This document shows, one piece after another, positions 16,970 through 46,700 of a DNA stretch of 64,000 nt. The translations under genes were made by a program, and so were the position numbers. The stretch's first letter is position 1, and each line of letters opens with the position of its first letter. The notes beneath the pieces are model-generated. The model had not been told where the DNA came from. It did not search any database and saw nothing but the letters and a program-made list of their open reading frames with translations. The stretch comes from Eledone cirrhosa (lineage: Eukaryota): the NCBI GenBank assembly GCA_964016885.1, contig OZ024742.1, forward strand, positions 12,958,001 through 13,022,000, written 5' to 3'.

Positions 16970-17162
16970 TAACGAAGGAAATGTGGTAAGGAACCAGGTG
17001 GACCATAACGCACCAAAGTACTCAATACTTAGGGTAGTAGAGTGGGTAATAGGAACAAGTAAGACCCCGACGGCTGAGCTCAAGCCGTTTCGACGGCTTA
17101 TTCTGGACAGAATTAGCCGTCGAAACGGCTTGCTCAGCCGTCGGGGTCTTACTTGTTCCTAT
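16970..17162. mobile_element. Fold-back element, family A
   Basis: Arms about 17049-17105 and 17108-17162; about 78-nt tail; (TA)n flanks. Confidence 0.85.
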
Positions 17163-17372
17163 ATATATATATATATATATATATATATATATATATATAT
17201 ATATATATATATATATATATATATATATATATATTAAACAGTTAAACAAGATTCAATGAGTATATCAAAGAATGGGTTTTACAGTAGATTGGAAGCACTC
17301 TACGGAAAAAATAATTTTCCAGGGTTATTAATATTAAAATATATGAATAATATAGAATATGTAGATAATAAT

Positions 17373-17550
17373 TGTTTCTATTTTAGGCACAAGGCCAGCA
17401 ATTACCCAGTACATTACTGGTACTTTATTTTATCAACCCCGTAAGGATGAAAGGCAAACTTAACCTCGATGGGATTTGAACTCAGATCGAAAACGGACGT
17501 AACTATGCTGGAAAGCATGTCCGACCCTCTACCGATACTGCCAATTCACC
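17373..17550 (-). mobile_element. tRNA-derived SINE (Meta/MESC-like core) with 17-bp TSD
   Basis: TSD aatatgtagataataat at 17356 and 17551; A and B boxes on the - strand. Confidence 0.85.
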
Positions 17551-18395
17551 AATATGTAGATAATAATAATCCAAGTACTAATCTTGATAAAAATAATAAC
17601 ATATATAAGAGAAACTCTAATAATTATAATTCAAACACCCATACGCCAAATAAATCGAGGATAAGAACTAGAACTAAACCAGTCATATGGTTCGCCCCCC
17701 CCCCCCTGCTTCGGTCGCAATTAAAACACCAATTGCAAGATTTATTCTTTAACGCTTTGGACACCTCTTTCCCTACTCAACATAAATACCATTCCATTTT
17801 TAATAGACATACCATTAAATTCTCGCATTCTACAACTATGAACATGGCTCAAAACATTGCCAAATTAAACACTAAAATCCTAAAACAAAACCACCATAAT
17901 GATCTTAATAATAGAATTAACATAAATAATACTAAACCAAAATGTAATTGTAGAAATAAAACTGATTGCCCTTTGCAAAATAATTGTCTAGATAGTAATT
18001 TGGTTTATAAATGCACCGTAAAAACTGATCACAACACATACAACTACATAGGATCGACTTCTTCTACATTCAAAGCCAGATTTGCGAACCATAAATGCCC
18101 ATTCTCGAACTCCAAGAGGAAATCAACCACTTCTTTATCACGGCTCATATGGTCATTAAAAAAGAGGAATTTAAAATACTCCATTCTTTGGACAAAACTT
18201 CGGAACTGTGGAGTTTACTGCAACTCTAGTATATCAAATAACTGCACGCTCTGTACAATGGAGACCCTGTTGATTATTAATAACTATGAGACCATAACTA
18301 ACAAAAAAAGTGAATTATTCTCTAGTTGCCTTCATAAAGCTACGTCCACATTCTTAGCCTCCCACAAAACTAGAAAAAAGAGAGAGGAATACTAA
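17551..18395 (+). pseudogene. PLE C-terminal GIY-YIG region (5'-truncated); 3' UTR extends to about 20105
   Basis: VIWFAPP, IFNRHTIKFSHSTT, CNCRNKTDCPLQNNC, LVYKC..YIGSTSSTFKARFANH, CTLCTME, NKKSE. The annotated ORF start lies inside the SINE. Confidence 0.88.
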
Positions 18396-19191
18396 ACCAT
18401 TAAAAACTTGGTTGTCAACAGGGAAAAACATTAATGGCCTTTAATATTTCATTATCTTATAACTAATAGAAGAAATAACGCTAGAATGAAAGACACTTGT
18501 TCAATAACACGCCGGAACATTGATATACATAACATAATATTATTAACTTTGATCCATACCATTATTTCTTTATTTCTCTATCTTTATCATCCTATCTAAG
18601 TTTTAAATCCATCTCTATCTTTATCATCCTATCTAAGTTTAATATCCAACCCATACATTTTTACGGAACTTATTTCTAACTGTGAATCTTTCATGCATTG
18701 TTGATCTCTTATTTATAATATGTATGTAATTATATTTTGTAAGTTTTTAAATATACCTACCGCATTTTTATATCCATGATTCAAATATAGAGCAAATATC
18801 CAAACTATAAATTATTATAGACCTTATTTTGAACTCTGAATTATCCATGCATTTATTATTGTTTTTCTTATATATATCTATGTATTTAACTGTAACACGT
18901 CGAATTTTATTATATAAAATTATAACCGTTATCATTTACCTAAAGTATACTGTATCACTAATACCTAATATATATCCATATATACTTCCCTGTATCTTTC
19001 TATACATAATTTTTAGTTAACTTCTAAATTTCTTGATTATTATTTATTTTGAACTATGAATAATTAATGCATTTACACCCTGTTATATATAGGTATATAT
19101 TTAACTTTAGCATGCCTCAATCTATTATTTTATTTTTATTTTCGTTATCATTTACCTAAAATATACTGGTTCATTAATATATATCTATATA

Positions 19192-43592: not shown

Positions 43593-43698
43593 TGTATGTA
43601 TGTATGTATGTGTGAATGTATGTATGTATGTATGTATGTATGTATGTATGTATGTATGTATGTATGTATGTATGTATGTATGTATGTATGTATGTATG

Positions 43699-45676
43699 TA
43701 TGGTTTTCGTGCTGCACGCGGCACTATTGATATGATCTTCTCAGCTAGACAGCTCCAGGAGAAGTGCATGGAACAAGGTTTGGATCTGTATCGGGTTTTT
43801 GTCGATCTGACAAAAGCTTTCGATACTCTTAACAGAGATGCATTATGGAAGGTTCTCCAGAAACTTGGTTGCCCTGATAAGTTCCTTGCTTTAGTTAGGT
43901 CTTTCCATGACGACATGAAGGCTTGGGTTAATGTCGGAGGTAATATGTCGGAGCCTATCTCAGTAAAAAATGGAGTGAAACAGGGGGATATTCCAGCACC
44001 GACCCTGTTTGCCATATACTTTGCAATGGTTTTCTGTATTGCATTCAGGAATTGCGAGCATGGTGTTTACATCTGATATCGAAGCTCAGGCAGCATATTT
44101 AACATTAGGCGCTTTGCTGCAAAGACAAAAGTATGTACATCAATCATAAGAGACCTCTTGTATGCAGATGATTGCGATCTTGTAGCGCACACAGAGAGTG
44201 ATATGCAGCACATTTTGAATGCATTTTCTGACGCTTGCACTGCCCTAGGATTGACTGTCAGTCTCAAGAAAACCGTCGTCATGTACCAACCTGCCCCTGT
44301 TAAGCAGTACAGTGAACCAAATATCTATGTGTATGATAAACGACTTGGAGTGGTTGATCAGTTTGTCTACCTGGGAAGCACTGTTAATCGATACAGCAAC
44401 CTTGACAGTGAAATCTCACTTAGGATTAGAAAAGCAAGTGATGCTTTCGGAAAGCTAGAAAGGCGACTCTGGGGTCGGCGAGACATATGCAGGAGGACAA
44501 AGGTAAAGGTGTACAAGGCATGTGTGCTCTCTTGTCTTCTTTATGCCTGCGAGACCTGGGTCACATATCGACACCACCTTAAGCAATTGGAGCGTTTCCA
44601 TCAGATGTGTCTCAGACGGATCCACGGCGTTCACTGGAGGGACCACATCAGTGATGTTGAGATTTTGGAAAGCTCTATGTGTGACAGTATAGAAGCTCTT
44701 GTGCTTAAGCAACGACTCCGTTGGAGTGGTCACCTTGCCAGGATGAAGGATTCTAGAATACCAAAACAACTCTTTTATGGAGAGTTGGTTAAAGGAAAAC
44801 GACCGCCACATAAACCAAAAAAGAGGTATAAGGATTCCTTGAAAGCCTCTTTGAAAGACGCTAACATCTCTGCTGATACATGGGAGAATATTGCTGCTGA
44901 TCGTAATAAATGGAGAAAGACTGTATATGAGGGAAAAGTTGCCTTTGAGGCATCTCGAATCGCATACGAGAAAGTAAAGCGGGATGTGAGGAAGGACATT
45001 GCTGTTGCACTTCCAGACGGCGAGGGTCCTCCTATGGTGCTGACATGCAGCGTCTGTGCGAGACTCTGCCTAAGCAAAGCTGAACTCGAAAGTCATCTTC
45101 GCAGTCATAAAGTAAGACCAGTGGTTAACTACCAGGCTGCTGTTGGAGATGCTACTCATCATGCTTGCCAAACATATGGTAGAGAATGTAAATCAGCAGG
45201 AGGGCTCAAGCGACATGCAAAAGTACATGAACTCCAACCACAGCCGGCTATTCCCAGTGAATGTTTTGGTTGCCGACTCTGTGGAAGACATTTTAGATCA
45301 TTGGCTGGGCTAACAAGCCACATTCGATCGCAGCGCTGTTAGTTGCTATCGTGTGTGTGTATAGGTATGTTTATGTGTGTGCGTGTGTGTGTATATATAT
45401 ATATGTATATGTATATTATTATTGTTGCTGTTGTCGTTATTATTATTGTTGTTATTATTATTATTTTTATTATTGTTATTAATGTATATGTGTGTGTGTA
45501 TATATATATGTGTGTATATATGTATATGTATGTGTGTATATATATATATAGATAGATAGATAGATAGATATATATTTCTTTTTCTTATTTTATTTTATTT
45601 TTTATTTATTTATTAATATATAATTTTTTTTTTCCTCGTGCAATAGCCATACTCGATAACGAGGGGGCAGCCATCA
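43699..45676 (+). mobile_element. 5'-truncated RTE-clade LINE in (TATG)n
   Basis: YGFR..RGTIDMIF, FVDLTKAFD, GVKQG, LYADD, FVYLGS, LLYACETW, RLRWSGH..RM; in-frame stop at about 44074; ends ggcagccatca-(tgta)n. Confidence 0.92.
44158..45342 (+). CDS. RTE RT C-terminal half with three C2H2-like zinc fingers
   Basis: YADD; CSVC..H, CQTY..H..H, CRLC..H. Confidence 0.85.
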   Translation: MYADDCDLVAHTESDMQHILNAFSDACTALGLTVSLKKTVVMYQPAPVKQYSEPNIYVYDKRLGVVDQFVYLGSTVNRYSNLDSEISLRIRKASDAFGKLERRLWGRRDICRRTKVKVYKACVLSCLLYACETWVTYRHHLKQLERFHQMCLRRIHGVHWRDHISDVEILESSMCDSIEALVLKQRLRWSGHLARMKDSRIPKQLFYGELVKGKRPPHKPKKRYKDSLKASLKDANISADTWENIAADRNKWRKTVYEGKVAFEASRIAYEKVKRDVRKDIAVALPDGEGPPMVLTCSVCARLCLSKAELESHLRSHKVRPVVNYQAAVGDATHHACQTYGRECKSAGGLKRHAKVHELQPQPAIPSECFGCRLCGRHFRSLAGLTSHIRSQRC

Positions 45677-46502
45677 TGTATGTATGTATGTATGCATGTA
45701 TGTATGTATGTATGAATGTAAGTATATATATATATATATATATATATATATATATGTATGGAAATTTATATATGTAAGCCTATCATGTATTCTGTGTGTG
45801 TGTGTGTGTGTGTGTGTGTGTGTGTGTGTGTGTGTGTGTGTGTGTGTGTGTGTGTGTGTGTGTGTGTGTGTGTGTGTGTGTGTGTGTGTGTGTGTGTGTG
45901 TGTGTGTGTGTGTGTGTGTGTGTGTGTGTGTGAGTGTGTGTCGGTGTAAGCCTAGCATGTATTCAATATGTGTACGTTAGAGTTACTCTACACATGATAG
46001 TGTATAAAAGTTCTATGTAAACGTCAACTTAACTTTAGAGAATTTTGAGTAAATGAAAGAAACATTTTGGCCAGTCATTGGTGCGAAAACGGAACTGACC
46101 GGAGGTGAGGTGTTGTGACCTAACGTAAACGAAGTACATGTTAGATCCTTTGTGTGACTATAGAAGACGTTTCTATAGTGAAACAAATACTGGTTATTTG
46201 CTGGAAACTTTAGATCGAAGTATCAAAATCGATCAGCAAGTTGCTGACACTCTTCGTGTTTATACTTATACTGATTCCCTAAATAATTCGTTGATATGTT
46301 TCCTCCAATGTCTGCAGTGATATATGTTAATCCGAGCTGTTTATTTTATATATTTGACAGGGAGATCAGAGAGAAGATGGAGGTCTCTGGCTAGGAAGCT
46401 CGCTTTATAATCCCGTCTTATTGAGCTTTATCCCACTATATAAATAAATAAATATATATATATATATATATATATATATATATATATATATATATATATA
46501 TA

Positions 46503-46700
46503 TAACGAAGGAATTGTGGTAAGGAACCAGATGGACCATAACGCACCAGAGTACGCAATACTCAGGGTAGTAGAGTGGGTAATAGGAAAAAGTATGATAC
46601 AGACGGCAGAGCTCAAGACGTTTCGACGGCTATTTTGTGAGTCCAGAAATAGCCGTCGAAACGGCTTGAGCTCTGCCATGGGGGTCATACCTTTTCCTAT
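46503..46700. mobile_element. Fold-back element, family A
   Basis: Same tail and arm end (ttttcctat) as the other copies. Confidence 0.85.

Follow-up and report, generated by a model that had tools for sequence, protein, structure and literature searches.

The region analysed here (the window) comprises 64,000 bp of Eledone cirrhosa DNA (contig OZ024742.1, positions 12,958,001 to 13,022,000 of the forward strand, from assembly GCA_964016885.1 of 3.0 Gb) and consists of AT-rich animal DNA in which (TA)n tracts are dense. A comparison of the masked window with itself revealed numerous local inversions, each with (TA)n boundaries, and these fold-backs, in which two arms of the same sequence family stand head to head and one of them carries an additional outer segment (the tail), are insertions of Penelope-like elements (PLEs) in (TA)n. 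The copies are listed by family in Table 1. In a scan that was blind to family, covering the window together with the sampled loci L031-L170 (1.05 Mb with 1,059 TA-bounded blocks, a sample enriched for families A and B by design), an inverted match between the ends was found in 207 blocks, 189 of them with ends offset by at least 30 nt and 14 with an offset below 10 nt, and the near-symmetric blocks among those listed were mostly interior segments of bigger palindromes. The tails are one-sided and measure 77-95 nt in families A, B, C, J and N, as against 30-44 nt in families D, E, G and Q, with lengths up to ~170 nt in others.

The two families studied most closely are very abundant, with 54,367 exact genome matches to a 22-mer of family A and 37,208 to a 25-mer of family B, and both can be connected to a coding region. 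Directly downstream of the tail, a partial tandem of family A in locus L085 harbours a 786-aa open frame that has motifs of a reverse transcriptase (RT) and of a C-terminal endonuclease, including YRDD and a YIG core, and the open reading frame (ORF) of family B is similar to it (49% identity over 262 aa for the fragment 21283-22134, minus strand) and likewise located downstream of the tail. Read from the ORFs, both families share the motifs SDKTG (DKT in place of DKG), RWR (an RW-basic motif) and YRDD, a CxCx5C linker and the endonuclease motifs CxxC and CxH, and are without CCHH. Insertions of both families are flanked by (TA)n, and a partial tandem (pseudo-long terminal repeat, pseudo-LTR) together with an inverted, 5'-truncated copy was found in L085, L177, L183 and L199. 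A Pfam search gave no match for the L085 frame or the family B fragment; the nearest Atlas clusters (0.96-0.99) contain GIY-YIG, RVT_1 and HTH_animal in part of their members, HTH_animal in 25-38% in the top three. A motif scan identified hammerhead cores (CUGANGA..GAAA) in other elements of the window, for instance at 20033 and 23015. No such core was found in the A unit of L085 or in the stretches of B that were scanned (L200 and the window), and A and B are therefore labelled, from their motifs, as Hydra-type and not filed as members of the Hydra clade.

Outer ends were scored in 175 family A arms from L031-L100 and the window, chosen by a core 22-mer common to both arm types, while L001-L030 were excluded from these counts and from the pairing counts below because the query copy held the tail; an apparent T/A difference between the arms in L001-L030 was an artefact of that query copy carrying the T. 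The outer end was situated at position 1 in 67 arms and at position 78 in 70, and bimodal outer ends were also seen in families B, C, D, J and N. All four family A copies of the window start with ACGAAGG or ACAAAGG after (TA)n and have a tail of 77-80 nt, shortened by an internal deletion of about 25 nt in the copy at 1877-2044, their other arm ending in ..TTCC or ..TCCC followed by TAT. In family B the tail-less arm of both window copies stops at ..ATTTATTAAAATAACAG, leaving a tail of 85-95 nt, the two copies of family C have a tail of ~90 nt in common and arms that are 78% alike, and a tail of 30-37 nt is common to both copies of family D. Full-length copies show the tailed end passing through TAT and on into the ORF (for A in L085, for B in 11 of 30 loci picked by their RT region), and the tail-less end of family A also adjoins TAT. 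Across families the tail-less site adjoins ATA or TAT in 57 of 118 distinct contexts, compared with a 7.5% share of triplets within those tails. Relative to the putative start described below, the two sites are located at +58 and +138 in family A, with the first ATG at +232, and at about +70 and +160 in family B, with the first ATG at +205. Since the tailed end of full-length copies runs through TAT into the ORF, both outer ends are fixed internal TAT sites in the 5' untranslated region (UTR), upstream of the ORF, and neither is the RNA's 3' end. The initial annotation of this DNA had cited copies that are all present in the window with their ends, and had proposed a PLE origin, two fixed outer ends per family, shared tails and TA microhomology at the ends, all of which agree with the counts above; the comparison of arm endpoints that it recommended returned fixed outer ends and not the fixed interior of an element with terminal inverted repeats (TIRs). 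Its placing of one of the priming events at the RNA 3' end is contradicted by the course of the tailed end into the ORF.

When the ends were combined pairwise, using 126 head-to-head pairs of family A from L031-L170 and the window, 110 pairs consisted of one tailed and one tail-less arm, three of two tail-less arms and two of two tailed arms, whereas 11 had an eroded end. One end of each kind was thus present in 110 of the 115 classifiable pairs (P = 8e-27 against free choice), and for this reason the two priming events are coupled and not independent. Among 33 pairs of family B, judged by eye, none was symmetric and four had an eroded tail-less end. Of the two tailed/tailed pairs of family A, one is formed by the tandem junction inside L085, and the second, in L109, also has inverted flanks. 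Palindromes that continue into the flanks past (TA)n can be found at L109:5287-5551, L162:198-490 and L098:2600-2993, which suggests secondary inverted duplications centred on fold-backs. At L051:1474-1740 a tail-less arm of family A is fused directly to a family B fold-back, so that two neighbouring insertions have lost the DNA between them or the insertion itself is a chimera.

The position at which the arms meet (the axis) was analysed in 67 family A pairs not selected on axis position. The farther inner end was located at 135-139 in 41 of them, at 130-144 in 57 and beyond 149 in 6, so that the axis shifts by a few bases yet is strongly clustered, and three of the four family A copies in the window turn at 131-138. 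The A of TTAGTC stands at position 138 and is preceded by a TATA-like box 29 nt upstream, while the axis hot spot of family B is the A of TTAGTT, without a TATA-like box. Judged against the initiator consensus, the hot spots of both families resemble an initiator. The untemplated base beside an arm ending at this putative +1 is a sense-strand G in 21 of 34 cases, compared with 10 of 43 at other ends (P = 0.001, counted over all loci including a few duplicates, L101-L140 having been picked for a non-T at -1, whichever base), and a G in 6 of 8 family B junctions. At L053, L079, L102 and L111 both arms carry their own extra G. For L1 and SVA an untemplated G is taken as the mark of a cap (PMC4859970), and an internal promoter within the pseudo-LTR is described for Penelope of D. 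virilis in passages of PMC2377424. Contigs assembled from public runs and placed on L085 have (TA)n loose ends at both sites, and their summed depth rises more than 10-fold across +1 and falls several hundredfold after the tailed end, although runs X1 and X4 may be the assembled sample and thus not independent of it. The A of the hot spot may consequently be the capped 5' end of the mRNA, as far as sequence features allow, and most copies would then be stubs of the mRNA leader, 60 + 140 nt. The base preceding +1 genome-wide (T in 17,065 cases, non-T in 10,886) was not used, being confounded by a TCAGT subfamily and by bases of the partner arm; the first 100 non-T bases were G in 43, C in 47 and A in 10 cases.

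In both arms the sense strand points outward, and the arms are therefore joined at their 5' ends. How they arose was addressed by comparing their lengths and sequences. One alternative, built on published ideas, is a single priming event after which the nucleic acid would fold back to serve as its own template, with the resulting hairpin resolved by the endonuclease at the internal site to leave the one-sided tail; self-priming, possibly on an antisense template, is put forward in passages of PMC3846280, and resolution by the endonuclease is given as the cause of the tail in sections of PMC8557442. Such a course agrees with subfamily variants being common to both arms, with arm ends lying within 10 nt of each other in 69 of the 110 pairs and with a junction microhomology of at least 2 nt in 39% of 44 cases (some of them over-calls), against 11% by chance. 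Snap-back copying would, however, need a second arm that lies wholly within the first, and this is counted against by the 31 pairs in which the tail-less arm exceeds the tailed one by more than 10 nt (10 pairs show the opposite) and by the 9 pairs in which the arms have no sequence in common, the tailed arm stopping inside the tail; where it is longer or shares nothing, the tail-less arm is no copy of the tailed one. The arms also have no common sequence in 9 of 29 short pairs of family B. Later deletion is unlikely as the cause of the lopsided copies, since these are not older by a nearest-neighbour proxy (mean 2.8 mismatches versus 4.3, for 14 and 38 copies respectively out of 62) and have tail-less arms that extend equally far (137 or more in 8 of 14, versus 20 of 38 others). 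Moreover, 40 of 103 junctions have an unpaired centre of at most 2 nt, which is difficult for folding in cis, and the extra G present separately on both arms at four loci is hard to reconcile with one arm copied from the other. Self-priming is on the whole unlikely. Two primings on separate RNA molecules or ribonucleoprotein particles, with sites picked independently, would fit the RNA-templated appearance of both arms and the few pairs with two tail-less or two tailed ends, and a single dominant source locus in each cell could supply the variants common to both arms. This we regard as quite improbable given the one-of-each rule and the way the arms pass +1 together (both past the hot spot in 7 pairs, one in 3, neither in 59; P = 3e-7, in a tally that includes six long pairs added by hand), and many subfamilies coexist, yet arms within a copy match (74 of 2,232 sites differ in family A, i.e. 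3.3%, with 134 non-reference variants common to both arms). The evidence thus favours arms that were templated separately, both from one RNA, and coupled twin priming over self-priming.

Twin priming could also take place with the hot spot marking an RNA cut or a strong RT stop, such as a stable hairpin at leader positions 12-27, instead of a cap. A predicted hairpin is situated directly inside the hot spot, there are further axis peaks at 132 and 134, related families contain hammerheads and family B has no TATA box at -30; on the other side, no hammerhead core was found in the scanned stretches of A and B, the extra G is specific to +1 and the TTAGT register is identical in two families whose proteins are only 49% identical, and we consider a cut or stop very unlikely. 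Even less credence is given to non-autonomous DNA transposons with TIRs or to assembly artefacts, an explanation that short, inverted and very abundant copies in TA might invite. The ends are asymmetric, the centre is different in each copy, the arms are contiguous with the RT ORF in L085 and diverge by 3.3%; a TIR DNA transposon or miniature inverted-repeat transposable element (MITE) is ruled out by the link to the ORF, symmetric ends and a fixed interior being absent. With regard to an artefact, the contigs from public runs show the same two (TA)n ends and the same depth steps, with the reservation already made for X1 and X4.

The explanation that we prefer, and hold to be probable, is that both cut strands of the (TA)n target prime reverse transcription on one RNA molecule, one at each of the fixed TAT sites, and that the cDNA ends are then joined head to head. 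The trailing enzyme would displace the leading cDNA, and cDNAs stopping at the capped start of the mRNA would give the leader stubs, while long copies would derive from read-through (tandem) RNA. The join may be made by end joining or by a template jump, with microhomology of none to a few nt or added bases. A candidate for the coupling is a predicted hairpin, RCTC..GAGY followed by RC/SC, that occurs no more than 18 nt 3' of the tail-less site in 9 of the 40 families (0.08 in shuffles), namely in 9 of 16 families with tails of 60-110 nt and in 0 of 24 others, the motif having been defined after the data were viewed. Its outer pair varies (A-T, G-C or G-T), and full-length A and B have the motif a second time, after the tailed site. 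The paired hairpins may be binding sites for two protein units, enforcing one priming per site, which would account for the one-of-each rule; the idea of a dimer is borrowed from that predicted for the PLE protein PAc in the text of PMC11167929. Of the claims made initially about mechanism, that of two separately templated arms joined head to head stands, by virtue of the longer and the non-overlapping tail-less arms, while independence of the two events fails on both the coupled sites and the coupled arm lengths. The axis does vary as was proposed, but only by a few bases and mostly around the putative start, and the duplication of sequence that was held to distinguish these copies from L1 is present in 101 of the 110 pairs and missing in 9, which have non-overlapping arms as in L1 twin priming.

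Several points weigh against the twin priming proposed here. Loci were sampled mostly from one contig (C1), there are 5 symmetric pairs in family A (3 tail-less and 2 tailed) plus one with two tails in family J, and 44 family A arms are unpaired. The tail-less site is without an exact ATA or TAT in 61 of the 118 contexts, and the strict hairpin motif was not found in 31 of the 40 families, including all those with tails below 60 or above 110 nt. The call of +1 rests on TTAGT, on the TATA-like box at -29 in A (none in B) and on the extra G, with the selection of loci mentioned. The post hoc definition of the hairpin motif and the lack of a hammerhead core in A and B belong here as well, and in L085 the inverted arm agrees with the far unit at 2 sites and with the near unit at 1, a difference too small to decide between them. 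Finally, according to PMC11167929, PAc starts at a site without homology to the cut DNA.

A more general possibility, which we put forward tentatively and think somewhat less likely to be right than wrong, is that these PLEs normally insert by symmetric double priming, with two enzymes on tandem 5'-UTR hairpins, each cut (TA)n strand priming next to one of the hairpins and both cDNAs extended to the cap. If so, the tens of thousands of 190-bp stubs would be the PLE counterpart of retroviral strong-stop DNA, long and partial-tandem copies would result from cDNA continuing from the leader into the redundant 3' copy, and tail, inversion and the requirement for pseudo-LTRs would all follow from a single scheme.

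Some further features of the arms were noted. The suggestion that the enzyme at the tail-less site leads was unsupported, as early stops in the stretch common to both arms are similar in number (7 versus 8 in family B, by eye). Among the long copies of B, 11 have a tailed inverted arm and 3 a tail-less one, and two of these copies may be one locus. Short local repeats of arm-end sequence are inserted at the axis at 27704-27745 of the window and in L097, L102 and L139, and are like templated insertions from repeated re-priming or end-joining repair. Runs of poly(A) or poly(T) are inserted at the axis or the 5' junction in L021, L060, L108 and L189.

Table 1. Fold-backs, putative sites and related coding regions in the window (positions are those of the window; strand is given where assigned).
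Feature	Position	Strand	Remarks
Family A fold-back (Hydra-type PLE leader stub)	16972-17162		Tailed arm outward to the left, tail 16972-17048; axis 17108; tail-less arm 17108-17162
TAT where the family A tail-less arm ends, putative priming site 1	17049-17051	-	
RCTC..GAGY hairpin motif, family A	17020-17043	-	Directly 3' of site 1
Family A fold-back	1877-2044		About 25 nt deleted within the tail
Family A fold-back	28915-29250		Both arms past the putative start (about position 204)
Family A fold-back	46505-46700		Tail-less arm stops at +1 with untemplated G
Family B insertion	20140-22336		Tailed long arm 20140-22073; inverted short tail-less arm 22074-22336
Family B ORF, C-terminal part	21283-22134	-	CxCx5C linker, YIG core, CxxC, CxH
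GCTC..GAGC hairpin motif, family B	20178-20223	-	Directly 3' of site 1
Putative +1 of family B	20300	-	A of TTAGTT, axis hot spot; inferred
Family B fold-back	27629-27905		Axis with locally templated repeats
Family C fold-back	22403-22808		Tail ~90 nt; hammerhead core in each arm (22588 -, 22712 +)
Family C fold-back, short	26894-27045		
Family D fold-back	60236-60471		30-37 nt tail at right
Family D fold-back, long	60749-62568		Tail at left
Family N PLE	22913-26862		Tail ~92 nt at right; ORF pieces broken (24209-26616, -); hammerhead core 23015 (-)
PLE, near full-length, Neptune-type linker and CCHH	2391-7198		Inverted arm, short tail
ORF of Neptune-type PLE	4462-6246	-	RVT_1 and GIY-YIG matches; clade label from motifs in the accessible text of PMC8557442
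Non-coding short fold-back	8233-8717		Partial tandem unit, 34-nt tail
Non-coding short fold-back, related to 8233-8717	10820-11383		Partial tandem unit, 34-nt tail
Fold-back	14461-15488		108-nt tail; tandem unit where the tailed end continues through TA
Fold-back	15509-16060		137-nt tail
Family J fold-back with hammerhead cores	55252-55679		82-90 nt tail
Fold-back with hammerhead cores	56618-57544		Tail ~114-118 nt
Family P fold-back	10239-10552		Tail ~80-90 nt
Family M fold-back	60494-60710		Tail ~70-80 nt

Besides these features the window contains a further piece of a Hydra-type PLE at 17451-20105. It has a CxCx5C ORF (17451-18395, plus strand) and an extended 3' region, with a hammerhead core located at 20033; a short repeat is present in the region of this piece in two copies of opposite orientation (17324-17570 and 19173-19421). 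A third type of PLE in the window is represented by a broken ORF at 11965-14388 (minus strand) with a GIY-YIG match, CCHH and a reduced linker. Three non-coding units of ~310-520 nt (8233-8717, 10820-11383 and 14461-15488), which we take to be retrozyme-like, have the partial tandem and the inverted, tailed layout and are probably non-autonomous passengers of PLE proteins. Two elements encode an RT outside the PLE group: one at 37738-42882 is in partial tandem and has a nuclease-like C-terminal region (40774-42661, minus strand), the other at 44077-45342 (plus strand) has RVT_1 and C2H2 fingers and is accompanied by inverted flanking arms (44994-45346 and 53726-54077).

The elements and their layout are known and what is new is added mechanistic detail. 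An inverted arm with a one-sided tail of 30-40 bp is described for PLEs in passages of PMC3846280 and PMC8557442, so the layout is a known hallmark, and the model of the initial annotation was largely anticipated by the text of PMC11167929 (2024). The pairing rule, the non-overlapping arms, the cap-limited axis and the paired hairpins were not found in the open literature, in a search that had subscription papers and the supplementary figures of PMC11167929 outside its range. The inverted, tailed insertion of PLEs is named as an open question in the section concerned of PMC8557442 and is left open in the text of PMC11167929. Very abundant families like these offer large numbers of natural insertion products to read, and the two TAT sites, the two predicted hairpins and the putative capped start are candidate cis elements for PLE priming. 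For annotation it is of importance that fold-back stubs resemble MITEs or microRNA hairpins; an Rfam scan gave only sub-threshold matches, with no family at gathering score and no hammerhead, among the best 150 of 229.

L1 primes at the poly(A) end of its RNA and at a variable internal site, normally without duplication. In the fold-backs, by comparison, each of the two sites is internal and fixed, the arms mostly overlap, and an L1-type first priming at a poly(A) RNA 3' end was not found, as the tailed end is internal and followed by TAT and the ORF. The likeness to L1 twin priming, in which both target strands prime on one RNA (Ostertag and Kazazian 2001, as cited in passages of PMC4859970 and PMC11702581), lies in the inverted join with small indels or microhomology and in the untemplated cap G at complete 5' ends.

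Endonuclease-containing (EN+) PLEs, as described in parts of PMC8557442, PMC3846280 and PMC2377424, are alike in having head-to-head arms, partial tandems, a tail at one end that adjoins the ORF start and (TA)n targets. They differ in that the published tails are 30-40 nt long, as opposed to 77-95 nt here in A, B, C, J and N, and optional, whereas the pairing is nearly strict here, and the published causes are self-priming or resolution by the endonuclease. The Hydra clade (PMC8557442, text of section 11) shares with A and B the C-terminal endonuclease, DKT, the R-W-basic motif, CxCx5C, CxxC, CxH, the absence of CCHH and the insertion in (TA)n, but carries the hammerhead that was not found in A or B, the units of which exceed 3 kb. 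A further related system is PAc, the protein of a Poseidon element of Anolis: according to the text of PMC11167929 it cuts and extends both strands in vitro from two internal start sites that delimit the tail, at AT-rich cut sites and with a stem loop near the start site. That text is without site pairing, a head-to-head join or a cap-limited stub, and the sites of PAc are situated inside the ORF and are non-homologous to the target, whereas those of the fold-backs lie in the 5' UTR and contain TAT.

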